A stretch of 64,000 bases of DNA from positions 1-64,000 of IMG/VR virus record IMGVR_UViG_3300025520_000001; one strand, 5' to 3'. The position numbers were made by a program, and so were the translations under genes. A model generated the notes under the pieces. That model worked only from the letters and a program-made list of their open reading frames with translations. It was not told where the DNA came from and did no database searches. Numbering within the stretch: position 1 is the first letter of the stretch; each line of letters begins with the position of its first letter. Below, in pieces: positions 35,127-63,784 of the stretch. The DNA comes from a virus.

Positions 35127-35164
35127 TTCGGATAAGGGCGTGGGCGCGCCCGAAGCAGTGTCAG
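35127..35164 (-). promoter_or_regulatory. regulatory cassette, variant copy (CTGACACTGCTTCGG + CCGAAA box)
   Basis: Minus-sense GGCTGACACTGCTTCGGGCGCGCCCACGCCCTTATCCGAAACGATATTCG, about 150 nt upstream of the kinase ATG. Confidence 0.45.
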
Positions 35165-35236
35165 CCGTTTCTTATGATCGCTTGTCGGTATGCTTTACCT
35201 GTGCACAATCCTAGCGACACCATAAAATACAATATT

Positions 35237-35256
35237 AAGCGAACCCTGCTTCGCTT
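35237..35256 (-). terminator. hairpin with T-rich tail
   Basis: Minus-sense AAGCGAA-GCAGGG-TTCGCTT then AATATTGTATTTTAT, just after the stop at 35272. Confidence 0.4.
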
Positions 35257-35271
35257 AGCGTTGGGGCTCAA

Positions 35272-35505
35272 CTAGCTGTCCCGCTTCACTGCAATAAAAG
35301 TACCAACAAGAGTTCCTAGCGCAGCGGGAACCATAATCCATCGGTCTTCTACAATCAGAAGAGTGAGAGAGGCGCCGATGAGATAGATGGCGACTGACCA
35401 CAAGGATGCAGGAACTGCCTTCTTGTTTGAGACACCTGAAATGTACTTAGCCCAACCATAGTCGAGCAGAATCATTAGAAAAAATGTTGCGATGTATTTG
35501 GTCAT
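35272..35505 (-). CDS. small membrane protein
   Basis: ORF track 77 aa, two or three TM helices. Confidence 0.6.
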   Translation of the reverse strand: MTKYIATFFLMILLDYGWAKYISGVSNKKAVPASLWSVAIYLIGASLTLLIVEDRWIMVPAALGTLVGTFIAVKRDS

Positions 35506-35629
35506 GAACTTTTTACCAGAAAAAGTCTATAGTGGGCTTCACGGTACGTTTGATATGAACAAAGACCTAGATAATACACTGCGATTAATAAGTCGCGCAC
35601 CGCCACCTGATAATGTATCGTGGGCATTA

Positions 35630-35872
35630 TCATATCTTGACATTAACAGCAATAATCGGAGTAGGAATTTCAAGTACTTCTTTAGTGGCTTCTACTGTAA
35701 CTGTGAACGAAAGTCTCTTGCCAATTTCCTTAACGAAGGAATCAGCTGTGCCGTTAAAAGAAGCTACGTAACGGCTTATGGCGTGATCAGCGTCAAGAGC
35801 ATAGAAAGATTTCGGGTGACGCCAGGAACCAACTACAGTATACATTCGTCTCAGCTCACATACGCGTTTCAT
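35630..35872 (-). CDS. hypothetical protein
   Basis: ORF track 80 aa. Confidence 0.6.
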   Translation of the reverse strand: MKRVCELRRMYTVVGSWRHPKSFYALDADHAISRYVASFNGTADSFVKEIGKRLSFTVTVEATKEVLEIPTPIIAVNVKI

Positions 35873-35970
35873 GGTTTTTTAAGAAGAGCTTGAAGGTAGG
35901 CTGCTCCCATAACTATTCTAGAGAAGAGTTTCAAGCGACAGCAAACATCCAAAAAGGGAGCAAATTGCAT
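35869..35970 (-). CDS. LxL mini-protein family candidate (33 aa)
   Basis: Hand-translated MQFAPFLDVCCRLKLFSRIVMGAAYLQALLKKP. ATGA overlap with the next gene. Confidence 0.3.
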   Translation of the reverse strand: MQFAPFLDVCCRLKLFSRIVMGAAYLQALLKKP

Positions 35971-35974
35971 GTAG

Positions 35975-36103
35975 CTAGTGCGCACCAGTAACCACCAAAA
36001 AATGAGCGTTAGCGTAACTTGTTTTACAACACAGCTTCAATCGGTAGATACAGTCTAAAATCGCAAACACAGACGTGCGTGCATCAAGGTCTTTTTGGTC
36101 CAT
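35975..36103 (-). CDS. LxL mini-protein family member (42 aa)
   Basis: Hand-translated MDQKDLDARTSVFAILDCIYRLKLCCKTSYANAHFLVVTGAH. GGGAGA 12 nt upstream. Confidence 0.4.
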   Translation of the reverse strand: MDQKDLDARTSVFAILDCIYRLKLCCKTSYANAHFLVVTGAH

Positions 36104-36122
36104 GTTTACTGTATCTCCCTAT

Positions 36123-36167
36123 ACAAAAATAGGTCAGGATAGGCCGCTAAGCACTATCCTGACCTAT
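36123..36167 (-). terminator. rho-independent terminator
   Basis: 14-bp stem ATAGGTCAGGATAG / CTATCCTGACCTAT with an 11-nt loop, followed by TTTTTG in minus sense; lies 33 nt after the 36200 stop. Confidence 0.65.
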
Positions 36168-36199
36168 ATGTTCCACCATATCGTGGCACCCTAAGCAGA

Positions 36200-36661
36200 T
36201 TACCCCTGCTGCGGAAGGAGGTGACGAAGGCTCTCGGGAATGGCGGCCACGTTCACCGTCTTCTTGGGCTTCAACTCGTTGATCCGCTTGTCGATCTCGA
36301 GCTGGATCTCCGACTTCGCCGTCTCATCGGTGGTGACCGAGAGGAGCGTGCGCATGGCCTTGAGCGTCTCGTCGCCCGAACCCGTGCGGGTACCCGGGTT
36401 CTTGGCCATGTAAGCCACATTGCCATTGAGCCGCTTGTCCTTGCGGAGCCAATTGCTCACGAGTCCGCTGACATACGCGGAGAGCTTGGCGCTGTCGGAC
36501 GCATCGCCCTGATAGACGATCTCTCCGGCCTGGAAACCCGCGATGAGCGCGGCCTGAACCTTGCCGCGCTCATCCTTGGTGAGCTCAACAGCTTCGCTGA
36601 ACTCAGTGGAACCACGAACATCACAAATCGCCTGAAAAACTGCATCCTTCTGCTTGGACAT
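36200..36661 (-). CDS. NWLRKDKR-family protein, paralog 1
   Basis: 153 aa. SNWLRKDKRLNGNVAYMAKNPGTRTGSGDETLKAM...LPESLRHLL aligns along its whole length with 58837..59292 and 62460..62924. Confidence 0.8.
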   Translation of the reverse strand: MSKQKDAVFQAICDVRGSTEFSEAVELTKDERGKVQAALIAGFQAGEIVYQGDASDSAKLSAYVSGLVSNWLRKDKRLNGNVAYMAKNPGTRTGSGDETLKAMRTLLSVTTDETAKSEIQLEIDKRINELKPKKTVNVAAIPESLRHLLPQQG

Positions 36662-36772
36662 ACATTCCTTTTACTTGTTTAAACTACGAGAAAACTGCCA
36701 CAGTAACAACTTCCCAACCCATTTGGGACACAAGATGTTTGTTTCGGATTCGTATCGTAAGACAACGAGTGG

Positions 36773-37294
36773 TTACCACTCCCACTCATTTACGTATTTG
36801 TCTCGCATGTTCGGCCAGATCCTGTAGCGAATAAGGGCCAACTGATTTTTGCGAGTGAAATAACTAAAACTACCAGTCCCCACGCAACAGCCGCACACAC
36901 CCATGCTATTCTTTGAGGGGTCAGAAGAGTATCCACTGCCCTTGCACACAGGACACGTGCCGTCAGGATGTTCGTTGATTCGCTTCTTCTCTGCCTCGTA
37001 CTTGTCTTTCTTATTTTGCTTTTCCTTGGCCATGAAGGCGATACGCTCGTCGCACGCGTGTGGTAACCCGTAACTCTCAGTGAGAACCATTTTCTTTCCT
37101 TTAGAAATGGGGTCAACCTCTTCAGCCCAATGGAGGTCACTGGATGTACAGTACTTGCACTTCACTGCCTTAAGTTCATTGTCAGCACAAAAGTGCTTCC
37201 TCGCAGTGTTCTCGTCGAATAGAGTCCACTTACCATTGATAGACTTTTCCCAGTAAACTTTCTCCGCGCCGCAGCGCTTGCACCTAGTACTCAT
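36773..37294 (-). CDS. zinc-ribbon repeat protein (paralog of 12719..13423)
   Basis: 173 aa. RCKRCGAEKVYW...KHFC and KCKYCTSSDLHW...PHAC repeats, plus CPVCKGSG...CGCCVGTG. Confidence 0.7.
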   Translation of the reverse strand: MSTRCKRCGAEKVYWEKSINGKWTLFDENTARKHFCADNELKAVKCKYCTSSDLHWAEEVDPISKGKKMVLTESYGLPHACDERIAFMAKEKQNKKDKYEAEKKRINEHPDGTCPVCKGSGYSSDPSKNSMGVCGCCVGTGSFSYFTRKNQLALIRYRIWPNMRDKYVNEWEW

Positions 37295-37460
37295 CTTCTT
37301 CCTCTATCTCAAGCAAGTTGGTGTCACAAGTAATAGCTCGGTCATATGTGCGCTGACTAATCATGTCCATCTTGACCATCATCCATATCACGGTTGTTAT
37401 GGAGCGATCTACTCGGAACATTTCACCCCTAGTCCAACACCACTTTGGCTGATTATTCAT
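37284..37460 (-). CDS. LxLIS mini-protein family member (58 aa)
   Basis: ATG at 37460 with GGAG 7 nt upstream. ...TTVIWMMVKMDMISQRTYDRAITC... Confidence 0.4.
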   Translation of the reverse strand: MNNQPKWCWTRGEMFRVDRSITTVIWMMVKMDMISQRTYDRAITCDTNLLEIEEEDEY

Positions 37461-37504
37461 AAGGTAGCTCCGTTCGCAAGAGTTACGCTCGGCATGAATA
37501 AGCC

Positions 37505-37810
37505 TTACCGAACTTTCCACTTTTCATTCTTGAGGTTCGCGATGCTCATGATCGCATCCTCTGCTTTTTGCCAGCGAGGACTGCATTCGCAAGGCTTGCT
37601 GCTTTCGATCCAATCTCCATTGTGGCCATTCTCGAAACTATCATCTATTTCACCGTAGCCGTGACAAATAGGACAGTTGGGCTTGGGATTCACCTTAATG
37701 GGTCGTCCACCGTCTTCACACACCCTGCGGATTTTAGCAAGCCGCGCCTTGACATCCTTTAACTCCGCACGAAGAGCTGAAAGCTCAGCTGAATTATGCG
37801 CGTTGCTCAT
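37505..37810 (-). CDS. hypothetical protein with CPICHGYG zinc motif
   Basis: ATG at 37810 (MSNAHNSAELSALRAEL...) in ORF 37505..37912. ATGA overlap with the upstream stop. Confidence 0.6.
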   Translation of the reverse strand: MSNAHNSAELSALRAELKDVKARLAKIRRVCEDGGRPIKVNPKPNCPICHGYGEIDDSFENGHNGDWIESSKPCECSPRWQKAEDAIMSIANLKNEKWKVR

Positions 37811-37995
37811 TCTAGCGCCTCCGAGATATCGTCGACCTTGCAGTAATAGAGGTACGGCTCTTCCCATTCCTTCTTTGCCTTTGCCATGGCCTTTTGAGCG
37901 TCTTCTGCCCACACCAGGCCATACCCGTATTTGTCAGGTCCACCTTCACCATAGGTTTGGGGGTAACGAAGGGTCGCAATGAATAGTTTCTTCAC
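37807..37995 (-). CDS. hypothetical protein
   Basis: ORF track 62 aa. Confidence 0.6.
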   Translation of the reverse strand: MKKLFIATLRYPQTYGEGGPDKYGYGLVWAEDAQKAMAKAKKEWEEPYLYYCKVDDISEALE

Positions 37996-38003
37996 GACTT
38001 TTC

Positions 38004-39197
38004 CTATAATGCAGCGATCGCGGCGTCCAATTCGTCCACAGAATCGCCAAGAAACACTATACCTTTCATCTTCTTTCCACTCACAGTCTTTCCGTCTTCA
38101 TATCTTCGCCCACGCTTCAAAGCAGTTAAGATAGCTCGGACTCGAGGATCTCTCGTGACGTGATCTGGACAATCACAGGGATCGTATGGACTACTGCAAA
38201 GAGAGCATTCCCATCCATCGCTATACAATTTTCGCTTTGCCATCATTCCACCACGTAGGTCCATGAGGTCTTCATTCGTGCTCGACCTCGACCGGGGTGC
38301 AAGTACAGCCCCAGCGTCATCGAGGTGCTCGTAGTCGTCCTCGCCACCGAACGTCGCGCTGCAGATGTTGCACGGGTCGCCGTCGCAGACGTGGCGCTGT
38401 GGCTCGACTAGAGAGCGTGCAGCTTTGGCGGCTTTCTCCCACACCTCGCGGTCCGGGACGGGTTCGACGTGCAGCAGCGTTACGGGCTCGCGCACCGAGG
38501 GCGCGGGAATCAGAGCGCGCTGCTTCGCGTCGAAGGCTCGGCAGTCGTCGCACTCACCGCAACCGACGTGACAAAATATTTCCGGCGTCGGCGCGGGGAC
38601 GGTGCCGGAGAGGGCGGCGTCGATTTCCGCCCATCGCGCCTGCGTGATGCCGCACCGCGAGCACCGGGGCGACGACTCGGCGGGCTGCCAGTCACAGCCG
38701 TTCCAGCCGCCACACTTCATGCGCTCGGCATCCAGCGCCTCCCGAAGCCGCTCGGCGTCGGATTTCACCTCATTCAACTCCTCGGCCAATGCGTCGCGCT
38801 CGGCCTCTCGCTGGCGAGCAACGAGCATCTGGTGCGCGGCGTCGGCCTCGGCCTTCAGCAGGTCGCCGGTCAACCCGTCGAGCGACTTGTCCGCCTCACG
38901 GAGTGCGGCTTCGGCCTTCTCGGCGCGCTCGCGCGTCACCTGCACCAGCTCTCGCGCCGTGTCGTTGAGGGACGCCATGCCCCGCGCCGTGGCGAGGTCG
39001 CGCCGGTACTCGATGTTACGGCCCGCCGATTCCGCGAGGTTCGCGTTCGCCGTGGCGAGGTCGCGCTCCAGTTCCGCGATGCGATTCACGGTCGCGCGGA
39101 TGCGCCGGTCTTCGCACTGGTCCGATGTGCACGGCTGCGCGCTCATGCAGCGGCGAGCCGGCAGGTCCGTCAACGTGTACGGCTTCGCGTCACCCAC
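38004..39197 (-). CDS. GC-rich coiled-coil / multi-Cys hypothetical protein
   Basis: 397 aa; Ala/Arg/Glu-rich coiled coil followed by several CxxC clusters. Strikingly GC-rich, with 6 spurious overlapping ORFs in the track. Confidence 0.75.
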   Translation of the reverse strand: MGDAKPYTLTDLPARRCMSAQPCTSDQCEDRRIRATVNRIAELERDLATANANLAESAGRNIEYRRDLATARGMASLNDTARELVQVTRERAEKAEAALREADKSLDGLTGDLLKAEADAAHQMLVARQREAERDALAEELNEVKSDAERLREALDAERMKCGGWNGCDWQPAESSPRCSRCGITQARWAEIDAALSGTVPAPTPEIFCHVGCGECDDCRAFDAKQRALIPAPSVREPVTLLHVEPVPDREVWEKAAKAARSLVEPQRHVCDGDPCNICSATFGGEDDYEHLDDAGAVLAPRSRSSTNEDLMDLRGGMMAKRKLYSDGWECSLCSSPYDPCDCPDHVTRDPRVRAILTALKRGRRYEDGKTVSGKKMKGIVFLGDSVDELDAAIAAL

Positions 39198-39259
39198 GGT
39201 CCACCCCCAGCAGCTTTTGCTCCGCAGTCACCTTAATGAGCTCTTGGCAACTGTACATA

Positions 39260-39499
39260 TTACCCACCGTTGACGAGTCTCAACGCTTCCTCGGCGGTGA
39301 AACCGGCTTTGAGAGCTGCAGCGAACTGATTGGCTTTCATCTTCAGTTCATCAGCCTTCGCCAACTTCTTCTCTTCTGCGCGAAGGAGGGTCCACACGCT
39401 CTTGGCCTCCCCGTTGCTCGGCGGGCACTTTGTAATCTTCGTACCTGCAGGAATAACAGTCTGCGTCTTGATGTGCACGTGTATCTCCTTGTGGATCAA
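39260..39499 (-). CDS. hypothetical protein with KITKCP motif
   Basis: 79 aa. IPAGTKITKCPPSNGEA, compare 10097..10357. Confidence 0.6.
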   Translation of the reverse strand: MIHKEIHVHIKTQTVIPAGTKITKCPPSNGEAKSVWTLLRAEEKKLAKADELKMKANQFAAALKAGFTAEEALRLVNGG

Positions 39500-39543
39500 T
39501 ATAGGTTCGGTTTGGCTTTTAGGTTGCGCAGTTGCCTGTTAAT

Positions 39544-40005
39544 TCAGTCAGGTTCATGCAGGTTTTTGAAAAGATCGTCAATCATTTTCTTGGCCTGCTT
39601 TTCCAACGTTTTCTCCGAAGGTTTTTTCTTCACCTTCTTGGGTTTGGTCGGCGCAGCCTTACTCTTTGCACGACCAAACCTCATCGGCTCTTCCTCCACT
39701 GGATCGAGCTCTCCGCGTGTCATAGAGCTCAAACCAAGCATACGGATCGGGTCGTGTTCCTTTACCAGACCATCTTCAATGCCGAGCTTAATGCTGTCAC
39801 CAAGCTCACCTTCCCACTCGTCAGTATCGAGGTCGCGCTGCAGCCAAACATAAGGCATGACAGCTTCGTCGGTTTTACCAACAGATACCACAATCATGTT
39901 GGTGGCATTGTCTTCCATTGCCGCAGCGACCTTCTCACCCAGTTCATCTAGGTCTGATGCTTCTTCGCGGCGCTCTCGTCTACCTAGAATCTGGATGAAG
40001 AACAC
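39544..40005 (-). CDS. hypothetical charged protein
   Basis: ORF track 153 aa. Confidence 0.7.
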   Translation of the reverse strand: MFFIQILGRRERREEASDLDELGEKVAAAMEDNATNMIVVSVGKTDEAVMPYVWLQRDLDTDEWEGELGDSIKLGIEDGLVKEHDPIRMLGLSSMTRGELDPVEEEPMRFGRAKSKAAPTKPKKVKKKPSEKTLEKQAKKMIDDLFKNLHEPD

Positions 40006-40006
40006 A

Positions 40007-40300
40007 TTACTCCTTGTTGAGAAGGAGAGCCTTCAGCGCCCGCGACAAGGCAAGCCGTTCGCCGCGCTTGGCATTCGGGGTGTCCCGCGGGTTGCGCTTG
40101 GCCTCGCCCACGAAGACCTTCTTCTCGTAGTTAATCATGGCAATTGTGAAGTTGCCGTGGGTGATGGTTGTGGTCTGCGCGTTGTTATTGAGGTCCTCCG
40201 TGTCCACACACATGGCCTCGTGGTTGGCGTTATCTTCCTTCAGGGCCGCGCGCATCACACCGGGAAGCATCTCGATCAGCACACTATTATCGACTCGCAT
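40007..40300 (-). CDS. hypothetical protein (DUF1876-like, tentative)
   Basis: 97 aa. GEAKRNPRDTPNAKRGERLALSRALKAL. Confidence 0.6.
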   Translation of the reverse strand: MRVDNSVLIEMLPGVMRAALKEDNANHEAMCVDTEDLNNNAQTTTITHGNFTIAMINYEKKVFVGEAKRNPRDTPNAKRGERLALSRALKALLLNKE

Positions 40301-42527: not shown

Positions 42528-42544
42528 GACCAATGCTTTCTTTG

Positions 42545-42644
42545 TGGAGAAGCCGGGACTCGAACCCGGTTCAATCGCCGCTAACTATGCCGTAACCCAG
42601 CATTGCCCTTTCTGCGAGGCGATTACAGCGCTGGGAGCTTCCCC
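42545..42644 (-). ncRNA. 100-nt tRNA-like RNA with G3:U70 acceptor and non-tRNA core
   Basis: GGGGAAG...CCGGGTTCGAGTCCCGG-CTTCTCC-A. Acceptor and T-arm are canonical. The 59-nt core has a 7-bp stem AATCGCC/GGCGATT and a possible pseudoknot CCCAGC/GCTGGG. Confidence 0.45.
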
Positions 42645-42652
42645 ATTACTAC

Positions 42653-42985
42653 TTACTTCTCGAACGGCAGACCACAACCGTATTCCTTCTCCTTCAGCCT
42701 GGTCAGTGTGTTCTGCACGACTGTCTTGTCGACTGGTGACAACTTCTTTTCATCGAGCATTGCGATGTTGTAGCAGAGCCCACGCAGCCTCGCGATGACC
42801 TTGAGATATTTCCTCTCAGTCTTTGACTTCGCCTTCTTCTTGGACTTTTTATGAGTCTTCGCTTCACATTTGCTACACACTTTACCGCTATTGCCAATGA
42901 AATACTTGGTCCCGACTTGTTTGCTACACACCGAGCAGTAGGGTGCTTCCCAGCCCTTGGTGTCAAAAACAGTTACTTTAATCAA
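42653..42985 (-). CDS. zinc-ribbon, Lys-rich hypothetical protein
   Basis: 110 aa. CSVCSKQ...CSKCEAK. Confidence 0.65.
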   Translation of the reverse strand: MIKVTVFDTKGWEAPYCSVCSKQVGTKYFIGNSGKVCSKCEAKTHKKSKKKAKSKTERKYLKVIARLRGLCYNIAMLDEKKLSPVDKTVVQNTLTRLKEKEYGCGLPFEK

Positions 42986-48372: not shown

Positions 48373-48636
48373 GGCTTACGCGAGCTTATCGACGCACAGC
48401 TTAGCTCCTCGACGTGCAAGCAAATCCACGCCACGGGCGTTGCCACCGTTAGGACCGCCTTTCGCAAACCTCGTACTTCCACTTCTCCATGGCCGCAATA
48501 GAAGGCAACCACTTCCACGAAGTGCTGCAGGTTCACTTATGCCTCAGCCTAACCTACTGTAGTTGCTGTACTAGAGTCGTGTTCATACAGTAGGACTCTC
48601 GCAATCTGAGGTCTTCGTTCGACATGTGGGTATACG

Positions 48637-48684
48637 TTCGGATTAGTACTGTACTCGTGGGGTGCGCCGGCGTAGCAGTGTCAG
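48637..48684 (-). promoter_or_regulatory. regulatory cassette (CTGACACTGCTACGC + CCGAACGTATAC)
   Basis: gcgtagcagtgtcag at 48670-48684; ttcgga at 48637-48642. Immediately downstream (minus sense) of the 48701-48742 terminator. Confidence 0.55.
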
Positions 48685-48700: not shown

Positions 48701-48742
48701 AAAATAAAAAAGGCGGATAGGCCCAGTTGGCCTATCCGCCTT
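48701..48742 (-). terminator. rho-independent terminator
   Basis: Minus-sense AAGGCGGATAGGCC-AACTG-GGCCTATCCGCCTT followed by TTTTTATTTT, 18 nt after the stop of 48761..50578. Confidence 0.85.
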
Positions 48743-55150: not shown

Positions 55151-55243
55151 TTGAGACTCCCTCTTCCAAAGTTGTTTGTTGCACTAAAAGAACCATGCGT
55201 GGCTCTCGTTGAGAGTCTAGAACACCTGTGCCGCGCATGGTTG

Positions 55244-55357
55244 TTATACGTTCGGATACGCGCCAGTGTACCACCTAAACTTTTCATACCACGCTTCCTG
55301 TGCTATCTCTCTTTCAGTTTTACGAGAAATAAGTTCAAGCTTGCGAAGCACCGCCAT
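55244..55357 (-). CDS. LxLIS mini-protein family member, N-terminally short (37 aa)
   Basis: MAVLRKLELISRKTEREIAQEAWYEKFRWYTGAYPNV. The family-like sequence YDAVIDL continues upstream without a start codon. A CCGAAC box lies in its last codons. Confidence 0.25.
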   Translation of the reverse strand: MAVLRKLELISRKTEREIAQEAWYEKFRWYTGAYPNV

Positions 55358-56745: not shown

Positions 56746-57081
56746 TCACGATGCAGAAAAAACAGAGAGACCGCAGTATGTACTGCCATTAGTCCCATCG
56801 TAGTTGAAGAGTGGATGCCCCATCTCGCCCAAAGCCTGAGTAAATGCGTGTAGGTCTTCAATGAAGAATCGGAGCATAAAGGGGCTTAGTCCGTCAGTGC
56901 AGAAGTCGAAGCTCACCAAGATGCAGTCAGGAGTCGGGGAAAACTGGAAAGCTTGAGTCTCAAGAAACTTCGAATGCGTAGCGCGCTTCACATACTCACC
57001 CCATGTGATTACTTCGGCCTTGCCCAGCTTTGGCCACATGTGATTGAGGAGCGCAACTGCATTCTTGAGTTCTGCAAGCAT
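56746..57081 (-). CDS. hypothetical protein
   Basis: ORF track 111 aa; AAGGGGA RBS. First gene after cassette c. Confidence 0.7.
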   Translation of the reverse strand: MLAELKNAVALLNHMWPKLGKAEVITWGEYVKRATHSKFLETQAFQFSPTPDCILVSFDFCTDGLSPFMLRFFIEDLHAFTQALGEMGHPLFNYDGTNGSTYCGLSVFSAS

Positions 57082-57117
57082 GCTGTCCCCTTAGTTGGTT
57101 GTGTAAGCAAATATCTA

Positions 57118-57177
57118 TTCGGAATAGCAAATAGCAGTATAGCGCCGGCGTAGCAGTGTCAGCGGCTATAGCCGCTG
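57118..57177 (-). promoter_or_regulatory. regulatory cassette (hairpin + CTGACACTGCTACGC + CCGAAT box)
   Basis: Hairpin cagcggc-tata-gccgctg at 57160-57177; 15-mer at 57148-57162; ttcgga at 57118-57123. Confidence 0.55.
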
Positions 57178-57281: not shown

Positions 57282-57662
57282 TCACTTCTTTTCGTTAAGG
57301 AGCTCGAAGAACTGCTTTGCTCCGTCTTCCTTCGAGATGATGCCTGCGTCGACCGCCAGCTTGATGAGCTGGAACTTGTCGTTGGGCGTCCCGCTCGAGG
57401 CCGGCGCCTTCTGCTTGGGGTTCACCCACGACTCGATGAGGCACGTCGGCTGCCGGCCGACGATGTAGTTGAGCGGATTGCTGAACGCGCGGGTTCCCGG
57501 GCGGATGCTCCAACGACCCTGCTGGAGCCAACCCATCATGATCTCGCCCACCTTCTTGCGCTGCTCATCGGTGATGACGAGGTTGCCGCGCACAGGCGCG
57601 TGGCCGAGGACCTGCTGAAGGGCGGTGCGGAGAGCGTCCTGCTGCGAATTGAACTTGTCCAT
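57282..57662 (-). CDS. diverged NW[LV]RKDKR-family paralog
   Basis: ATG at 57662 with AAAGGA upstream. VITDEQRKKVGEIMMGWLQQG and LNYIVGRQPTCLIESWVNPKQK parallel the family blocks. Confidence 0.65.
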   Translation of the reverse strand: MDKFNSQQDALRTALQQVLGHAPVRGNLVITDEQRKKVGEIMMGWLQQGRWSIRPGTRAFSNPLNYIVGRQPTCLIESWVNPKQKAPASSGTPNDKFQLIKLAVDAGIISKEDGAKQFFELLNEKK

Positions 57663-57876
57663 GGTAGTTTCCTTTTTTGTCAACTTTAAGTGGGAACCAA
57701 TTTCCCATCTCGTATCGACAGGTGAATATATGTTCGGATTAGTTCTTCACCTGTAGTTCGACAGCATTATCACTTCTTGTACTTATTCAACAGTACGGCA
57801 CGTGTTTAGTTCCTGATAATGGCGGGACTGGCGAGAGCAAAGAGAGCGGTGAAGGAGCCGATGAGATAGAAGGCGA

Positions 57877-58459: not shown

Positions 58460-58467
58460 AAGTACTC

Positions 58468-58701: not shown

Positions 58702-58728
58702 GCTTTGTTGGGGACAAGCGTATTTATG

Positions 58729-58807
58729 TTCGGTTTAGTACCGAGCCTCAGCGTAGCAGTGTCAGCGCAAACAGTTCCACCCCATCCCCTGTACGAGCGG
58801 GATGGGG
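58729..58807 (-). promoter_or_regulatory. regulatory cassette (hairpin + CTGACACTGCTACGC + CCGAAC box)
   Basis: Hairpin ccccatccc / gggatgggg at 58780-58807; 15-mer at 58751-58765; ttcggt at 58729-58734. Confidence 0.55.
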
Positions 58808-58836
58808 CGGGAACCTGATGGCCTGTGACCTCGAGG

Positions 58837-59292
58837 TTACTTCGTCTGTACGAGGTGGCGGAGGCTCGGCGGGAGCGCTTCCACGTTGACCTCGACGCGC
58901 GGCCTGAGCTCCGCCTGGCGAGCCTCGATGGCCTTCTGGATCTCCTGCTTGGCCGCCGGGTCGGTGGTGATGGCCAGGAGGCTCTTCATCGCCTTGATGC
59001 TCTCGTCGCCGCTGCCGCTCCGCGAGCCCGGGTTCTTGGCGACGTACTGCGTGCCGCCGTTGAGCCGCTTGTCCTTGCGGAGCCAGTTGTTGACCAGGCC
59101 CGGCACGTACTTGCGGATGGCCACCTCGTCCGCGTTCTTGCTGTGCTGCGTGACGCCGAGCAGGAACATCTGCACCACCATATCGTGGATCTGCGTGAGC
59201 TGCTGCTTGGTCGGCTGGTACGCCTCGCCGTTGCTCTCGCCCATGACCTGCGTCACCGCCTGGAAGACCGCTTCACCCTGAGTGATCGACAT
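58837..59292 (-). CDS. NWLRKDKR-family protein, paralog 2
   Basis: 151 aa. VNNWLRKDKRLNGGTQYVAKNPGSRSGSGDESIKAM...LPPSLRHLV. Confidence 0.8.
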   Translation of the reverse strand: MSITQGEAVFQAVTQVMGESNGEAYQPTKQQLTQIHDMVVQMFLLGVTQHSKNADEVAIRKYVPGLVNNWLRKDKRLNGGTQYVAKNPGSRSGSGDESIKAMKSLLAITTDPAAKQEIQKAIEARQAELRPRVEVNVEALPPSLRHLVQTK

Positions 59293-59508
59293 ACTGTTTA
59301 CCTTTCAACTGCATGCTACGTGGTTAGTGTTACGACTACGTTTACGGTTTTAGCTAAGCTTTATTGCTCGCGTTATAACCGTGTTGGGTTGTACTTCATG
59401 GTTGAACTACGACTACGCTTCTTACGACTATGATAGACTTTATTGTCCATCATCATCGTGAATGTTTTTAGGTTCGGAAACGTGAGGTAAGGTGCGGAAC
59501 TAATTACA

Positions 59509-59631
59509 CTAATTAGCTCGACGAGCGAAAAGGTTATTTGCTATAGCCTTATGGGTGGCTTTCGACATGAGTCTAAAGCACTTTATCATGTAGCAAAAAT
59601 TCAGCACCACAATAATCTGTCGGTAGGACAT
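59509..59631 (-). CDS. LxL mini-protein family candidate (40 aa)
   Basis: MSYRQIIVVLNFCYMIKCFRLMSKATHKAIANNLFARRAN. Confidence 0.35.
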   Translation of the reverse strand: MSYRQIIVVLNFCYMIKCFRLMSKATHKAIANNLFARRAN

Positions 59632-59639
59632 ATTTTCTA

Positions 59640-59939
59640 TCACATGGTGTCCAATCGCTCGTCCCAGATATATTCAGTGAGCACCGAGTCAGTAGAGGCA
59701 CTGATGAGTTTTAAGTCTCGCAGAGTCGCGAGAAAGTCAAATACTACCCACACTACCTCTCTGTTTAACTTCCCCATGGTCCTTATTTCAGGTGTCCTGG
59801 TCACGTACACGCACCAACTCCTCTTGCGCGTCGCTACGCGCCCACATAAAGTCCATGACTTTTCTATCCGTCTCTGCCGAGATGATTCCAAGTAGTCGAA
59901 GTCCCCAAAGCAGATGTCTGACCCTGTAAACACCGCCAT
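59640..59939 (-). CDS. two-unit LxLIS family protein (99 aa)
   Basis: ORF track. Unit 1 ICFGDFDYLESSRQRRIEKSW; unit 2 VVWVVFDFLATLRDLKLISASTDSVLTEYIW. Confidence 0.5.
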   Translation of the reverse strand: MAVFTGSDICFGDFDYLESSRQRRIEKSWTLCGRVATRKRSWCVYVTRTPEIRTMGKLNREVVWVVFDFLATLRDLKLISASTDSVLTEYIWDERLDTM

Positions 59940-60133
59940 CAGATACCTTTATCATACCTCAACCTATATATGAGGATGCTCATTGCGTGGCTATCTGTCT
60001 TCCCGCTGATTAGCCCCATCAATCGGAGCAATAGTAGAAACAAGCCAATTCTGTTCGTGGCGGTGTGTTGCCACTCCCCACTCCCACCGCCACCGCCACC
60101 GTTAATTATGCTTGATCCCATTGGAGTATTCAT
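59939..60133 (-). CDS. LxLIS mini-protein family member (64 aa)
   Basis: ORF track. RIGLFLLLLRLMGLISGKTDSHAMSILIYRL, with a Gly6 run near the N-terminus. Confidence 0.5.
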   Translation of the reverse strand: MNTPMGSSIINGGGGGGSGEWQHTATNRIGLFLLLLRLMGLISGKTDSHAMSILIYRLRYDKGI

Positions 60134-60245
60134 GTGTGAACTTCAACATCACTTCGTGATCTGTCTTCCAGCTGACAAGGCCCAACTCTCGCATCAGGAA
60201 TAGCAGACGAGAGGTGCGGGTGAGTGTGATCCAGTCGCCCTGCAT
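60102..60245 (-). CDS. LxLIS mini-protein family member (47 aa)
   Basis: MQGDWITLTRTSRLLFLMRELGLVSWKTDHEVMLKFTHEYSNGIKHN. GAGGA 8 nt upstream. Confidence 0.45.
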   Translation of the reverse strand: MQGDWITLTRTSRLLFLMRELGLVSWKTDHEVMLKFTHEYSNGIKHN

Positions 60246-60299
60246 ACGAATAGTCCTCACGAGCTTTTACACCCTCCCGTAATTCCCATTAAGTTCGGA

Positions 60300-60650
60300 A
60301 TAGCTACTACACCTCTCTACACACCTACACTAAAATCGACTTACCAACGACTATCCTATATACTCTCCCTTACAGCTATACTAATACTCTGTAATACACA
60401 CTCTATCCCTATCCTCAATACTGTCTATAGGGGAAGGGAGGAATACTCCATATCAGTACTACTCTGTATCCCTAGAGGAGGGAGAAACTAGCCACTTCAA
60501 GCCTGTAACCTGCAGTATTTATTAGGAGAGGTGTGAAGAAAAGTCCAGTGTGGCCGCAGTCACTGCAAGGCCACCTGACTTATCAAGGGCTTACGCTTGG
60601 CCCCATGTGCGCCATCATGCTACATCCCTGTCCCCCTGCATGCCCATATA
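60300..60650 (-). pseudogene. decayed copies of the LxLIS mini-protein family (ORF-free stretch)
   Basis: Minus-sense MQGDRDVA*WRTWGQA*ALDKSGGLAVTAATLDFSSHLS* (compare 60102..60245) and ..VLRIGIECVLQSISIAVRESI*DSRW*. The family motif is interrupted by stops. Confidence 0.35.
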
Positions 60651-60654
60651 TCTG

Positions 60655-60680
60655 TTCGGAGCCCGGCGTAGCAGTGTCAA
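60655..60680 (-). promoter_or_regulatory. regulatory cassette, compact copy (TTGACACTGCTACGC-6 nt-CCGAAC)
   Basis: gcgtagcagtgtcaa at 60666-60680; ttcgga at 60655-60660. Preceded by a polypurine/polypyrimidine imperfect palindrome at 60684-60716. Confidence 0.5.
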
Positions 60681-60723
60681 CACCCTCTTCCTCCCTCCTC
60701 TATAGGGAGAAGGGAGAGAAACA

Positions 60724-60873
60724 CTAGGGAGAAAAGGGGAAGGATTGCCAGTCGTAATAGATCTTTCTCTTAGTATCTAGAGAGATTAGATGTAAGCGAT
60801 AGAGGACGTCGGCCAATCTATATAGCTTTATTCGAGATCCATGCAGCCCGATTCGAGATTGATTACTCTTCAT
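60724..60873 (-). CDS. LxLIS mini-protein family member (array I-h, 49 aa)
   Basis: MKSNQSRIGLHGSRIKLYRLADVLYRLHLISLDTKRKIYYDWQSFPFSP. Confidence 0.45.
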   Translation of the reverse strand: MKSNQSRIGLHGSRIKLYRLADVLYRLHLISLDTKRKIYYDWQSFPFSP

Positions 60874-61012
60874 AGTTAGGCGGAGCCTTGGCCCACTCCC
60901 TCCAGGTCATTACTATCACTTGCTCTCTGGTACTAAAGGAGATGAGATTTAGGCGATAGAGGACCTCATAGAGACTATAGAGGAAGTTGCGTTTAGTTAT
61001 GTTGAGCTTCAA
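60863..61012 (-). CDS. LxLIS mini-protein family member (array I-g, 49 aa, TTG start)
   Basis: (M)KLNITKRNFLYSLYEVLYRLNLISFSTREQVIVMTWREWAKAPPNYEE. Confidence 0.4.
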   Translation of the reverse strand: MKLNITKRNFLYSLYEVLYRLNLISFSTREQVIVMTWREWAKAPPNYEE

Positions 61013-61013
61013 T

Positions 61014-61151
61014 TCATTCTCTATCCCAGAATTGGGTCAGAAGATTGAGGCGAGTCTCATTAGAGATTAGGCCCAGGAGATAGAGGATCCAAGTGAAGTA
61101 GCGGATCTCTTCATATTTGCTTGCACTTATTTTTTGGTTCGGAGGAGGCAT
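61014..61151 (-). CDS. LxLIS mini-protein family member (array I-f, 45 aa)
   Basis: MPPPNQKISASKYEEIRYFTWILYLLGLISNETRLNLLTQFWDRE. TAATG overlap with I-e. Confidence 0.45.
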   Translation of the reverse strand: MPPPNQKISASKYEEIRYFTWILYLLGLISNETRLNLLTQFWDRE

Positions 61152-61285
61152 TAGTGTCTCCTAGTCCAGAGACTATTTATGTTCCTCATGCGGGTCTGGT
61201 AAGAGATGATCTGTATCCTATAGAGGAATATAGAGATCTTGTGGATGTGTAGGTAGGCTTCGTGGTTGAGAGTGTTGAGGTTCAT
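61151..61285 (-). CDS. LxLIS mini-protein family member (array I-e, 44 aa)
   Basis: MNLNTLNHEAYLHIHKISIFLYRIQIISYQTRMRNINSLWTRRH. TGATG overlap with I-d. Confidence 0.45.
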   Translation of the reverse strand: MNLNTLNHEAYLHIHKISIFLYRIQIISYQTRMRNINSLWTRRH

Positions 61286-61422
61286 CAGTATCTCCTGTCC
61301 CACAGTATGTCTAGGGTACGCATGCGGGTCTTACGGGAGATAAGCTGCAGTGTGTACAGCATGTAGCTTACATTGATGAGGTGTATGTACTGTTTGTGGT
61401 CTATGCGTTGAGCTATTACCAC
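61285..61422 (-). CDS. LxLIS mini-protein family member (array I-d, 45 aa, GTG start)
   Basis: (M)VIAQRIDHKQYIHLINVSYMLYTLQLISRKTRMRTLDILWDRRY. Confidence 0.4.
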   Translation of the reverse strand: MVIAQRIDHKQYIHLINVSYMLYTLQLISRKTRMRTLDILWDRRY

Positions 61423-61583
61423 AGCGGCATCTCGTCCAGGATGGAGTCATTAGCACTGCGCCTGGTCACCTCAGAAATGAGTCCCAGCTGCATCAGCACG
61501 TATATGAAGTCAGCTATCTTATAACCCTGCTGACGAGAGTACTTGAAATGGGGTTTCCGCTCCCCTTTGTAATTAAAGGTCAT
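61416..61583 (-). CDS. LxLIS mini-protein family member (array I-c, 55 aa)
   Basis: MTFNYKGERKPHFKYSRQQGYKIADFIYVLMQLGLISEVTRRSANDSILDEMPLW. ATG immediately follows the I-b stop. Confidence 0.45.
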   Translation of the reverse strand: MTFNYKGERKPHFKYSRQQGYKIADFIYVLMQLGLISEVTRRSANDSILDEMPLW

Positions 61584-61733
61584 TCAGTAATGGAGGTAGA
61601 TGGCATTGATAGCACGAACTCTAGTCGCCTCAGAGATGAGGCCTAGGATAGAGAGTACGGCCAGGAAGTCGGCCTGGCAGTAATACTCGTCCCAAGTAGA
61701 GTTGTAATTAGCGGTTGAAGTCGACACGGGCAT
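61584..61733 (-). CDS. LxLIS mini-protein family member (array I-b, 49 aa)
   Basis: MPVSTSTANYNSTWDEYYCQADFLAVLSILGLISEATRVRAINAIYLHY. Confidence 0.45.
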   Translation of the reverse strand: MPVSTSTANYNSTWDEYYCQADFLAVLSILGLISEATRVRAINAIYLHY

Positions 61734-61866
61734 AAGAGTTTAAAAGGGCTTTCGTGCGGCTTTCAGCGCCGCAGAGCCTCAGGAAGTACATGGTCCACAG
61801 GATGTAACTGATGGAGGTGCGCTCTAAGAAGGTGAAAGAGCGCCCGCGAGGTTCCTGCGCCTCCAT
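61708..61866 (-). CDS. LxL mini-protein family member (array I-a, 52 aa)
   Basis: MEAQEPRGRSFTFLERTSISYILWTMYFLRLCGAESRTKALLNSYARVDFNR. ATGA overlap with the stop of 61866..62255. Confidence 0.45.
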   Translation of the reverse strand: MEAQEPRGRSFTFLERTSISYILWTMYFLRLCGAESRTKALLNSYARVDFNR

Positions 61867-62255
61867 CAGTGAGAGTCGATGAAGGCCTGGAGCTCTTTCA
61901 CCTTCTCGCTGTAGAGGTGGATGCTGCTGCCGTACTTGTGGAGGTACTCGACGAGTCCCTTGGCGTACTCCTTGGCCTCATTGCCCTGGAGCGTCTCTGC
62001 CTGGCTGATGAGCTTGTCTCCCTCCACATCGCAGACGTGGTAGAGCTTGCCTTCGTGCTCGGAGAGCCAGCTGTTGGTGAAGTCTTCCCACTCTTCCAGC
62101 TCGCTGGACTCCTCGAGGAGCTCGGTCTCAGCAGTGACCATGAGCTCATGGTCGATGTAGCTGTAGCACCAGCCGCCATCCCAGGCATACTTGACGTGGC
62201 TCTCATTCACCTGCTCAGTGAACTGCTGCTTCAGCTGCTCGAGCTTGTCGCTCAT
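61866..62255 (-). CDS. acidic hypothetical protein
   Basis: ATG at 62255 (MSDKLEQLKQQF...) with GCAAGGAGCAAAGCC upstream. ORF 61866..62306. Confidence 0.75.
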   Translation of the reverse strand: MSDKLEQLKQQFTEQVNESHVKYAWDGGWCYSYIDHELMVTAETELLEESSELEEWEDFTNSWLSEHEGKLYHVCDVEGDKLISQAETLQGNEAKEYAKGLVEYLHKYGSSIHLYSEKVKELQAFIDSH

Positions 62256-62293
62256 GGCTTTGCTCCTTGCTAGGGCGTGTGAGCACTTATACG

Positions 62294-62356
62294 TTCGGCG
62301 AAGCAACTGCCCCTAGGCGTAGCAGTGTCAGCCGGCTCTGTACTAGCAGCCGGCTG
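62294..62356 (-). promoter_or_regulatory. regulatory cassette (hairpin + CTGACACTGCTACGC + CCGAACGTATAAG)
   Basis: Hairpin cagccggc...gccggctg at 62329-62356; 15-mer at 62317-62331; ttcggc at 62294-62299. Confidence 0.55.
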
Positions 62357-62459
62357 CACCACTCTGAGCCAAGTCATCTCCGGAGCAGGGAGCACGCTCA
62401 GACTGGAGGGAGTGCCGTCCCTCGTTTCCTAGACTCGCCTCTACGCTCGCTCCTACTAC

Positions 62460-62924
62460 TTACTTCACGAAGGCCCGCAGGTGCTCGGGCAGCTTGCTGA
62501 TGTCGAGCTGGACCTTCGGCTTGAGCTCTTCGAGGCGCTTGTCGATCTCCGCCTGCACGGCCAGCTTGGCCTCGGGGTCGGTCACCACGGAAAGCAGGAC
62601 CTTGAGGTTCTTGAGCTGTTCGTCACCGCTGCCGGTGCGGGAACCGGGATTCTTCGGGGCGTAGGTGACGCCACCGTTCATCCGCTTGTCCTTCCGCACC
62701 CAGTTGTTGGTGAGGCCGGGGATGTACTTCTTCAGCGAGATCTCGTCGTTGCCGCCCGAGTTCTTCTGCACCTCGCCGTTGAGGAAGCCGAGGAGGATGC
62801 GCTCGTGGACCTTTTCCGTCTGGTCCTTGGTCCACTGCGTGGTCGACGGCACCGGGCCATCGAGCTTGCCATCGTTGCCGAAGACGGAGAGAACCGCGAG
62901 GTACACCAATTCGCCCTGAGTCAT
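62460..62924 (-). CDS. NWVRKDKR-family protein, paralog 3
   Basis: ATG at 62924 (MTQGELVYLAV...) with CAAGGAGCAATACC upstream. TNNWVRKDKRMNGGVTYAPKNPGSRTGSGDEQLKNL...LPEHLRAFV. Confidence 0.8.
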   Translation of the reverse strand: MTQGELVYLAVLSVFGNDGKLDGPVPSTTQWTKDQTEKVHERILLGFLNGEVQKNSGGNDEISLKKYIPGLTNNWVRKDKRMNGGVTYAPKNPGSRTGSGDEQLKNLKVLLSVVTDPEAKLAVQAEIDKRLEELKPKVQLDISKLPEHLRAFVK

Positions 62925-63008
62925 GGTATTGCTCCTTGCTTGGACTACGTTCGAGTTGGACTGCACTATGATGAACTCTATGCTTCGTTCATCGTGACCT
63001 AATATAGG

Positions 63009-63063
63009 TTCGGATGAGTCGGAGCGGGTGCGTAGCAGTGTCAGCGGGCATGGTGACCCGCTG
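63009..63063 (-). promoter_or_regulatory. regulatory cassette (hairpin + CTGACACTGCTACGC + CCGAACCTATATT)
   Basis: Hairpin cagcggg-catggtga-cccgctg at 63042-63063; 15-mer at 63030-63044; ttcgga at 63009-63014. Confidence 0.55.
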
Positions 63064-63090
63064 CATAGCTTACTTCGTGGGAGTAGTGAG

Positions 63091-63309
63091 TTAGGCTGCG
63101 CGGCGGGTGTTCTGGTCGAGGTCCAGCGCCTTGATGCCCTTGCCGTTGAGGAAGCCGAGCATCACCGGGTCAGAGACCTGGACAGCGTCGTCGAACCACG
63201 AGGCGAGCGGCTTGTCGCTCTCCACCTCGTCGAACTCAGCACGCTGGAAGAAGGGGTCGAAGGAGCCGAGCAGGACGCTGAGAGAGTTGGGGTACGAGAT
63301 GAAGTGCAT
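63091..63309 (-). CDS. short protein related to the N-terminal domain of the NW[LV]RKDKR family
   Basis: 72 aa. DPVMLGFLNGKGI compares with HERILLGFLNGEV of 62460..62924. CCAAGGAGAGCAACC upstream. Confidence 0.6.
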   Translation of the reverse strand: MHFISYPNSLSVLLGSFDPFFQRAEFDEVESDKPLASWFDDAVQVSDPVMLGFLNGKGIKALDLDQNTRRAA

Positions 63310-63387
63310 GGTTGCTCTCCTTGGGTTGATATGTTGATGTGTGTTCGGTTCAGCGAGCAGGGATATAGAGTCCCCGCTCTTAGCTAC

Positions 63388-63687
63388 TTAGTTAAGGCAC
63401 CACTTGCCGCCGTGCCTGTGGTACTTGTCAGTGCCACTCGCAGTTACTCCGCCTTCTTTGAACAGCTCGATGAGTTCTTTGTCAGCGCCTTTCTTCTTCA
63501 GCCACTCAGCGCCTTTCTCGACCGCCGCCTCATCATCAGCGGCTTCAGCAACCTCGAGATCGCACTCCCAGTAGACCTCAAAGTCTTCCTGAGAATCGTC
63601 CTCAAAGGTGAGAGTGAGCATGGTGAGCTGCTTGGGGTCATCCAAGTTCGGCTCGAAACCAACCATGAGGTGTTTGATAGTCTTCAA
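63388..63687 (-). CDS. acidic hypothetical protein
   Basis: ORF track 99 aa. TTG start with AAAGG upstream (alternative ATG at 63666). Confidence 0.6.
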   Translation of the reverse strand: MKTIKHLMVGFEPNLDDPKQLTMLTLTFEDDSQEDFEVYWECDLEVAEAADDEAAVEKGAEWLKKKGADKELIELFKEGGVTASGTDKYHRHGGKWCLN

Positions 63688-63740
63688 TCAGTTGCCTTTC
63701 AGTCAGTGGGCTTTATTACCTTATGACTTAATAATATAAG

Positions 63741-63784
63741 TTCGGTGTAGTGCGTAGCAGTGTCAGTGGGCACCTGGCCCACTG
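63741..63784 (-). promoter_or_regulatory. regulatory cassette (hairpin + CTGACACTGCTACGC-6 nt-CCGAACTTATATT)
   Basis: Hairpin cagtgggc-acct-ggcccactg at 63764-63784; 15-mer at 63752-63766; ttcggt at 63741-63746. Confidence 0.55.

Follow-up and report, generated by a model that had tools for sequence, protein, structure and literature searches.

A near-invariant intergenic 15-mer phased with a promoter-like box in an uncultured phage: a candidate early terminator-promoter cassette

What is the role of a short sequence that recurs, almost unchanged, between the genes of a phage? The question is raised by a 64-kb stretch of viral DNA (positions 1 to 64,000 of IMG/VR record IMGVR_UViG_3300025520_000001, here called the window), which contains eight copies of a 15-nt element, here called the 15-mer. 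An earlier note on this stretch had described the copies and the GC-rich hairpins associated with many of them, and had suggested three candidate roles: a termination or antitermination signal, an element for processing or stability at RNA 3′ ends, and a protein-binding site. Binding of a protein remains the best prediction among these, while a role at RNA 3′ ends is not favored as the main one. We propose that the 15-mer is very likely the invariant core of a composite early terminator-promoter cassette.

The 15-mer and its promoter-like box

Since nearly all genes in the window are located on the minus strand, as are the ten tRNAs, the 15-mer reads CTGACACTGCTACGC in gene sense. A motif scan of the window recovered all copies that had been reported before, namely the six exact matches to the plus-strand form GCGTAGCAGTGTCAG, the variant at 60666, and the variant previously placed at 35151, which was found as a copy with two mismatches at 35150-35164 (Table 1). 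The eight gene-strand copies, six exact and two variants, are all on the minus strand and all intergenic, as had been claimed. Allowing for up to two mismatches, the scan gave 10 matches against 0.14 expected, a number that was reached in none of 100 shuffles; this excess and the recurrence of the motif in relatives bear out the view of the earlier note that it is a real and conserved intergenic phage signal. Six of the eight copies are located within 57-64 kb, the first 7 kb of the leftward region, amid open reading frames (ORFs) of 50-170 amino acids, and no copy in gene orientation was found between 1 and 35 kb. Partial copies of the form CTGACACTGCTT are present in plus orientation inside minus-strand ORFs at 1706-1720, ~9808-9818, and 21252-21266. 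The 11-mer of these opposite-orientation copies occurs twice against 0.015 expected on one strand, and the variant at 35150 has the same TT change as they do.

A search of relatives, as proposed in the earlier note, identified the exact 15-mer in 104 IMG/VR stretches, often with two to five copies each and on contigs of up to 177 kb, and in more than 115 metagenome stretches among the matches listed. More than 200 non-redundant, near-exact copies are located on uncultured phage contigs with unrelated flanks, and despite these flanks the order is constant: hairpin, 15-mer, spacer, box, leader, Shine-Dalgarno sequence, and ATG. Although the 125-kb contig L226 was retrieved via a protein and not via the motif, it contains two exact copies and one TTGACA-variant, and the association is therefore no artefact of how the loci were collected. 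The 15-mer is all-or-none, in that it is either present nearly exactly or absent: at 191 strong boxes, the best upstream match had 0, 1, 2, 3, and at least 5 mismatches in 60, 23, 2, 2, and 104 cases, respectively. The variation is almost wholly confined to positions 1, 2, and 8 (an example is the T8C variant in L031), and mild preferences in the flanks extend the motif to (A)CTGACACTGCTACGC(C). A comparison of relatives showed that conservation of the intergenic DNA is limited to the 15-mer and the box, that the gene bodies of just one family align in the cassette region, and that the genes between the conserved cassettes differ, for example in L090 and L226 compared to the window. The 15-mer string had no match in either orientation in the literature searched, and there was neither a published nor an Rfam match to identify it as part of a known mobile repeat, a finding that the earlier note had named as one that would speak against its reading.

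Downstream of the 15-mer, a position weight matrix (PWM) for the window and its relatives describes a second, strand-specific motif with the consensus CCGAnnC[T/G]ATATA. In the window, CCGAANNNATA occurs 11 times against 1.06 expected, and all 11 occurrences are on the minus strand. Each of the eight 15-mers has a CCGAA box downstream, at distances that sort into 6, 6, 16, 17, 18, 18, 25, and 28 nt and thus agree with the range of 6-28 nt given previously. Across the family, the end of the box is followed by the Shine-Dalgarno sequence and the start codon at a median of 30-40 nt, and pairs of sigma-70 −35 and −10 hexamers are not enriched in the region (10 found, 13 expected). The box is therefore the best candidate for a core promoter, which would be of the −10-only or extended −10 kind. 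A sigma-70 promoter with hexamers 16-18 bp apart is ruled out, as the earlier note had concluded, since the pairs are not enriched and CTGACA is 21-43 bp from TATA, which is too far; the distance from (C/T)TGACA to TATA is the sum of 9, the spacer, and 7, that is 21-24, 29-34, or 41-44 bp. No conserved hexamer was found 17 bp after CTGACA. Boxes with a 15-mer have higher scores than boxes without it, with mean PWM values of 15.4 and 13.3, respectively.

The variable distance between the 15-mer and the box had been taken to mean that the two are separate elements, but this conclusion did not hold. Among 96 non-redundant copies, the gaps peak at 5-8, 13-18, and 25-28 nt (about 7, 16, and 25), with a Rayleigh R of 0.44 at a period of 10 bp that none of 10,000 jittered nulls equaled. 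A second set, consisting of 115 new non-redundant copies among the metagenome matches listed and scanned with gaps of 4-34 nt accepted equally, showed the same three peaks, with R = 0.34 at 9.5 bp, a value that once more none of 10,000 nulls reached. The orientation is fixed, with a single inverted 15-mer upstream of 425 boxes. The 15-mer is located 12-14, 20-25, or 32-35 bp upstream of TATA, and its center falls near −33, −42, or −52 if TATA is assumed to be at −12. A periodicity of one helical turn in combination with a fixed orientation is what marks two partners that are bound to DNA and have to face one another, which argues for one unit at the DNA level. Neither a purely RNA-level element nor a pair of independent signals would readily account for such phasing. 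On the gene strand, the spacers that separate the 15-mer from the box are rich in C and poor in G, both in the window and in its relatives, the commonest 5-mers being CCCAC, CACCC, and CCCCA, and a GAGCT(C) sub-motif recurs soon after the 15-mer in several unrelated phages.

Hairpins upstream of the 15-mer

The four fused hairpins that had been drawn with CAG...CTG stems, at copies 1, 2, 3, and 6, fold as claimed, and the separate hairpin at copy 5 was confirmed with an extent of 58777-58810 (Table 1). The 3′ arm of the copy 1 hairpin ends in the CTG of the motif, and the hairpin at copy 5 comes after the stop codon of the gene at 58837-59292. The sequence that follows the fused hairpins is ACACTGCTACGC and not a U tract, and the earlier statement that no U-tract is present is thus correct for most copies. 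It is not correct for the copy at 48670, which is preceded by a canonical intrinsic terminator at 48710-48742 that is located after a gene for a protein of 605 amino acids and ends 25 nt upstream of copy 7. No other hairpin in the window fits a classical intrinsic terminator, with the U tract placed 0-2 nt after the hairpin. At copy 8 (35150) no hairpin was found, as the fold was no better than that of shuffled sequences.

Across the family, a hairpin of −8 kcal/mol or lower is present within 45 nt upstream of 86% of the box-linked copies, leaving 14% without. About half of these hairpins have a 3′ arm that runs to T2 or G3 of the 15-mer, i.e., into its CTG, and only ~10% of the hairpins have a T-rich tail. 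The stems are 7-14 bp long and the loops 3-8 nt, with one loop of 13 nt and loops of 3 nt in 5 of 84 hairpins. UUCG and GNRA loops are enriched (11 of 27 tetraloops, with CTTCGG in 20 of 234 upstream regions), and the hairpins therefore appear to be built to work in RNA, as a terminator, an attenuator, or a 3′ stabilizer. Box-only promoters have weaker upstream structure than those that bear a 15-mer. In the relative L071, which has T-tract terminators, the 15-mer of all five copies lies after the T tract and is therefore not needed in RNA there. The suggestion that the motif functions in RNA 3′-end formation or processing is thus not favored as a main role, given its position beyond the T tract in relatives, but the frequent fusion with hairpins that lack a U tract leaves room for a secondary role of the 15-mer in termination. 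We also considered extensive pairing of the 15-mer with an upstream complement, which was rejected since AGCAGT and TGTCAG show only mild enrichment and are limited to a small fraction of the copies.

Table 1. Copies of the 15-mer, upstream hairpins, and promoter-like boxes in the 64-kb window. Folding energies are in kcal/mol.
Feature	Coordinates	Strand	Sequence	Remarks
15-mer copy 1	63752-63766	minus	CTGACACTGCTACGC	exact; first copy of the leftward early region
15-mer copy 2	63030-63044	minus		exact
15-mer copy 3	62317-62331	minus		exact
15-mer copy 4	60666-60680	minus	TTGACACTGCTACGC	variant, 1 mismatch (plus strand ...GTCAA)
15-mer copy 5	58751-58765	minus		exact
15-mer copy 6	57148-57162	minus		exact
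15-mer copy 7	48670-48684	minus		exact
15-mer copy 8	35150-35164	minus	CTGACACTGCTTCGG	degenerate variant, 2 mismatches
Hairpin fused to copy 1	63764-63784	minus	stem CAGTGGGC...GCCCACTG	−13.7
Hairpin fused to copy 2	63042-63063	minus		−14.2
Hairpin fused to copy 3	62329-62356	minus		−19.5
Hairpin near copy 4	60687-60721	minus		6 nt upstream of copy 4; −19.8
Separate hairpin near copy 5	58777-58810	minus		strong; 11-14 nt upstream of copy 5; −26.4, z = −3.9
Hairpin fused to copy 6	57160-57177	minus		folded
Canonical intrinsic terminator	48710-48742	minus	14-bp stem, then TTTTTTATTTT	−31.6, z = −7.2
Box of copy 1	63733-63745	minus	CCGAACTTATATT	6 nt after copy 1; upstream of gene 63388-63687
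Box of copy 2	63001-63013	minus	CCGAACCTATATT	16 nt after copy 2; upstream of gene 62460-62924/62966 (~150-amino acid family)
Box of copy 3	62286-62298	minus	CCGAACGTATAAG	18 nt after copy 3; upstream of gene 61866-62255
Box of copy 4	60647-60659	minus	CCGAACAGATATA	6 nt after copy 4; then ~550 nt without an ORF of at least 50 amino acids
Box of copy 5	58721-58733	minus	CCGAACATAAATA	17 nt after copy 5
Box of copy 6	57110-57122	minus	CCGAATAGATATT	25 nt after copy 6; upstream of gene 56746-57081
Box of copy 7	48629-48641	minus	CCGAACGTATACC	28 nt after copy 7
Box of copy 8	35119-35131	minus	CCGAAACGATATT	18 nt after copy 8; upstream of tRNA-Arg (34423-34497)
Box-only promoter-like site	59465-59477	minus		no 15-mer; upstream of gene 58837-59292
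Box-only promoter-like site	57725-57737	minus		upstream of gene 57282-57662
Box-only promoter-like site	55243-55255	minus		weaker PWM score
Box-only promoter-like site	39498-39510	minus		top PWM score

A candidate cassette and its alternatives

In gene sense, the proposed cassette would start after the upstream stop codon with a GC-rich RNA hairpin, followed by (A)CTGACACTGCTACGC(C), a C-rich spacer of ~7, 16, or 25 nt, the −10-like box CCGAnnC[T/G]ATATA, a leader of ~30-40 nt, a Shine-Dalgarno sequence, and a start codon. The hairpin would end or attenuate the upstream transcript, and the 15-mer would function in double-stranded DNA, as the place where a conserved factor that recognizes its sequence docks. 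Either encoded by the phage or delivered with the virion, the factor would touch, from one helix face, the RNA polymerase bound to the box. Most likely, this factor would recruit or stabilize the polymerase and so mark the strongest early promoters; that the 15-mer has such a positive role at the adjacent promoter we put at even odds. The 15-mer would thus stand where the AT-rich UP element and the −35 hexamer stand in the cassettes of T4-type phages. We further propose that the hairpin abuts the 15-mer because it shields the site and the promoter from read-through, and that the repeated conserved sequence is probably also a recombination point that shuffles genes between cassettes.

The T4-type phages contain promoter early stem-loop (PeSL) cassettes, in which a stem-loop terminator is combined with an AT-rich upstream region and a sigma-70 early promoter, and which are repeated between the orphan genes of hyperplastic regions, where they act as recombination points (PMC2839356, PMC4122927). 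The cassettes described here are similar in that they are small putative terminator-promoter units that recur between the short orphan genes of a hypervariable early region, in that they have the order of stop codon, GC-rich stem-loop, upstream element, −10 element, Shine-Dalgarno sequence, and start codon, and in that the repeats are kept while the intervening genes swap among relatives. The concentration of the repeated intergenic motif among the small orphan ORFs at 57-64 kb, which hold six of the eight copies, is likewise a PeSL trait. However, PeSLs have a plain sigma-70 consensus and an AT-rich upstream region, whereas the cassette lacks a sigma-70 −35/−10 pair (10 pairs against 13 expected) and has a GC-balanced, near-invariant 15-mer at three distances that are one helical turn apart. 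In addition, the −10-like element has a CCGAnnC extension, and the phage is no recognizable relative of T4. The likeness is therefore one of layout and setting, but the promoter feature that defines PeSLs fails. Most likely, the cassette is PeSL-like and recurs where the leftward early region begins, between small genes that evolve fast. The description that fits best is a variant of the phage terminator-promoter cassette in which the 15-mer would serve as the DNA-level, face-of-helix partner of the box.

The middle promoters of T4 contain a MotA box placed 12 ± 1 bp upstream of a sigma-70 −10 element, and a phage activator that binds this box as a monomer makes contact with the polymerase (PMC2988021). 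Here, too, a phage-specific upstream box takes the place of the −35 hexamer and would work with a −10-type element, and the two boxes have a TGCT core in common. However, the MotA box is 9 bp long, tolerates substitutions, and has a fixed spacing, in contrast to the near-invariant 15-mer with its three spacing classes, and no homolog of MotA or AsiA was detected. Class I and class II activator sites and UP subsites of bacterial promoters also act from one face of the helix and at whole-turn positions, and the positions of the 15-mer differ by whole turns (9.5-10 bp) at a fixed orientation, as expected for a face-of-helix site. Such sites are usually palindromic or AT-rich, and degenerate, whereas the 15-mer is asymmetric, GC-balanced, and almost invariant. 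Two other comparisons were rejected. A sigma-54 promoter (TGGCAC-N5-TTGC) does not fit, as the motif has TGACAC, with GA for GG, and its GC is one base too close; there is also no space for an upstream enhancer, because the hairpin abuts the motif. In a lambda-type nut site, boxA precedes a boxB hairpin and both are conserved in sequence; here the hairpin comes first and its sequence varies.

Several points weigh against the proposed cassette, the first of which is general: we infer the promoter activity, the terminator activity, and the factor from the sequence alone. Pfam and PHROG scans of ~30 proteins in the window found no transcription factor that could be the reader. The sites of ordinary activators are usually degenerate, and a near-invariant 15-mer is a better fit to polymerase-type recognition or base pairing. 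Since the boxes that bear a 15-mer are not weaker than those without, they are unlike the weak promoters that classically depend on an activator, and a repressor that touches the polymerase would likewise be consistent with the helical phasing. The fusion of the hairpin with the CTG is far commoner than simple packing predicts, which hints at a role of the motif in RNA or termination. Finally, for ~5% of the copies in the family no box lies closer than 100 nt, and what follows is a long non-coding stretch. Such box-less copies were observed at L009 2420, L036 2375, L044 12662, and L074 12632, where 270-480 nt of repeat-rich non-coding DNA come before the next box and gene; no known non-coding RNA was found downstream of them. 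In the window, ~550 nt of non-coding DNA with purine/pyrimidine-rich inverted repeats are located downstream of copy 4 (~60100-60650). This block is 75-83% identical over short blocks to its counterpart in the distant relative L226 (~8150-8800), where it also follows a TTGACA-variant, and may represent a non-coding RNA or an origin. An Rfam search of 59900-60700 in E-value mode gave nothing, and Rfam identified only tRNAs in the window and seven related loci.

Among the alternatives, the 15-mer could be a stoperator-like operator, bound as an asymmetric site by a monomer of an early phage protein that, depending on the orientation, shuts the adjacent promoter and blocks read-through, so that the early region would be turned off at a later stage of infection. 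The stoperators of cluster A mycobacteriophages are asymmetric sites of 13-15 bp that occur in many copies in short intergenic spaces, are oriented with transcription, and are bound by a monomer with two DNA-binding domains (PMC9283540). The near-invariant 15-mer has all the hallmarks of the site itself, being asymmetric, present in multiple copies, oriented with transcription, and located in short intergenic spaces; its place right after the hairpin and right before the promoter would permit both functions, and boxes that are already strong would need repression more than activation. We nevertheless consider such an operator rather unlikely. Stoperators are found genome-wide in temperate phages, which also encode the cognate immunity repressor, and have no fixed relation to a box or a hairpin, whereas the 15-mers are confined to the early region (in the window mainly 57-64 kb) and are phased with a promoter. 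Neither a roadblock nor plain occlusion gives a reason for a phasing of 10 bp, the center of the third spacing class is ~40 bp upstream of TATA and thus too far away for occlusion, and neither a repressor-like gene nor an integrase was recognized among the proteins scanned. The phased distance to a DNA box, and the near-constant presence of that box downstream, are equally without reason if the hairpin and ACACUGCUACGC form an RNA 3′-end element, be it a U-tract-independent and possibly factor-dependent terminator, a pause site, or a stabilizing end. That the conserved sequence replaces the U tract in this way is improbable to a similar degree, even though the hairpins end exactly in the CTG of the motif at about half of the copies and have T-rich tails at ~10%, have loops of the RNA-type UUCG and GNRA kinds, and, where strong, go with the 15-mer rather than with box-only promoters, and even though a few copies have no nearby box. 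At 48710-48742 and in the five L071 copies, the 15-mer is located downstream of the T tract, where the RNA should already have ended, and 14% of the copies, including that at 35150, have no hairpin. There is a small chance that both functions are joined in a protein-coupled terminator-promoter junction, at which the factor bound to the 15-mer would complete termination at the fused hairpin without a U tract and pass on or recruit the polymerase to a promoter located one, two, or three helical turns downstream. By analogy, this junction might be the counterpart in bacterial viruses of the coupling between terminator factor and promoter at eukaryotic ribosomal DNA, with the ~150-amino acid or the 182-amino acid protein described below as candidate readers.

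The 15-mer has the sequence TGACACT in common with the SP6 promoter, and its length, asymmetry, and near-invariance resemble the promoters of single-subunit polymerases, such as those of T7 and SP6, which are likewise highly conserved asymmetric sequences repeated before genes. It might thus be an independent tandem promoter that is read directly by a second polymerase or sigma factor, for example by the very conserved, probably sigma-like protein encoded at 2099-2647, with transcription starting at or just after the 15-mer, as in a T7/SP6-type or a −10-only late promoter. Some copies indeed stand alone before non-coding stretches. The chance of this is slim, since tandem promoters predict neither the helical phasing nor a nearly obligatory box downstream, and since the copies are located in a region of early type and not before structural genes. 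Signature motifs of an RNA polymerase were absent from the window, the 10 kb beyond its end (L105), and ~0.9 Mb of related loci; each genome is covered in part, and that of the window by ~74 kb of probably ~172 kb. Within this coverage, the lack of such a polymerase gene speaks against a T7-type promoter. The early promoters of N4 also combine a hairpin with conserved bases, but an N4-type hairpin promoter, with its stem of 5-7 bp, loop of 3 nt, and giant polymerase, was rejected: the loops here are mostly not of 3 nt and are of RNA type, the stems are 7-14 bp and vary freely in sequence, and no ORF of more than 950 amino acids is present in any related locus. Strand-specific, exact motifs of 10-20 nt mark localized nicks in phages of the T5, phiKMV, and tf types, and the 15-mer could similarly be a site of DNA transactions, that is, a nick site, a target of recombination or homing, or a mobile repeat that happens to be intergenic. 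The gene content between the copies is shuffled among relatives, and PeSL repeats are recombination points (PMC2839356). This explanation is nonetheless very improbable. A tight, phased, and oriented coupling to a box and a hairpin is unexpected for a nick or homing site, the neighboring genes are of many kinds, with 39% of the copies lacking a flanking member of the ~150-amino acid family, and neither the plasmid and phage records nor the literature searched contained a match. There are also no terminal inverted repeats, target duplications, or associated genes for a nuclease or transposase.

Candidate readers, genome setting, and implications

Two proteins are of interest as potential readers. 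The 182-amino acid protein encoded at 2099-2647 on the minus strand is 60-86% identical to more than 400 metagenome proteins and has no Pfam match. Its fold matches are weak and dominated by phage sigma factors, including late sigma factors of the gp55 type, suggesting that it is probably a divergent late sigma factor and that the phage therefore probably redirects the host polymerase, as T4 does. L081 (7122-7823) encodes a canonical RpoD-like sigma factor whose region 2.4 motif is FSTYATWWIR and which was not seen in the window or the other loci. The second candidate is an all-helical family of ~150 amino acids with three paralogs in the window (58837-59292, 62460-62966, and 36200-36661, all on the minus strand), another member in L105 (9065-9553), and more than 960 metagenome homologs. 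The members contain the conserved core YxPGLxxNWLRKDKRLNGG..AKNPGSRxGSGD and match nothing in Pfam, PHROG, or, based on an AlphaFold2 model with a pLDDT of 86, PDB. This family is the most conserved neighbor of the cassette, being present in 127 of 160 element-bearing loci, but the 15-mer as a private promoter or terminator of the family was rejected, as 39% of the cassettes have no member on either side. The family is thus a candidate reader, or merely the only conserved early gene.

The end of the window is identical to the start of the IMG/VR contig 3300001796_000003. In L105, no further 15-mer was found and the genes, which include those for a tail sheath and a Nudix protein, are on the other strand; the copy at 63752 is therefore the first element of the leftward region and stands back-to-back with the structural module. 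The cluster starts at a boundary with a divergent tail-sheath/Nudix module in the window and in at least six relatives. Proteins that are 99-100% identical to those of the window are located on contigs of ~172.6 kb, and the genome of this uncultured myovirus is therefore probably ~170 kb. The small ORFs in the 57-64 kb stretch have no Pfam or PHROG matches, and such a layout, with small unmatched ORFs at the head of the leftward region, is typical of an early, host-takeover region. Tandem arrays of mini-ORFs (~40-50 amino acids, with an L..LGLIS.ETR-like motif) were observed in minus sense at ~60690-61866 in the window and at ~6100-8900 in L105, in stretches that contain no ORF of 60 amino acids or more. 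Genes for a class II ribonucleotide reductase, ThyX, a DNA ligase, a MoxR-type ATPase, a ClpP-like protease, and tRNAs are also present in the window. The 593-amino acid ribonucleotide reductase (22153-23934) is one of the very few genes on the plus strand. ARAGORN called a transfer-messenger RNA at 42544-42692 on the minus strand with the odd tag ASQKGQCWVTA, where an Rfam scan at gathering thresholds found none; the call is probably false, or the RNA very divergent.

Neither megablast nor blastn of the early region gave a nucleotide match to GenBank phages. Among bacterial genomes, the 15-mer pattern was only found in a phage-sized contig binned as a metagenome-assembled genome of Cytophagales, and the strong use of Shine-Dalgarno sequences in these loci argues against Cytophagales as the host. 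The only cultured phage with a similar tail sheath is the distant Myxococcus phage Mx1 (37% identity), which contains neither the 15-mer, the box, nor the ~150-amino acid family and is therefore of no use as a model.

These results provide a regulatory map for a widespread phage clade (~100-180 kb) that is known only from metagenomes and comprises hundreds of contigs, many of them from freshwater and wastewater samples. In these phages, the cassette would mark the boundaries of the transcription units in the early, host-takeover region, which suggests that PeSL-type terminator-promoter cassettes also exist outside the T4-like phages. Given its near-invariant upstream element of 15 bp and the three helix-phased spacings, the cassette leads to a testable prediction of how a factor contacts the polymerase. 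The exact 15-mer in combination with the box can also serve as a practical tag by which these phages, and their early regions, may be recognized in metagenomes.

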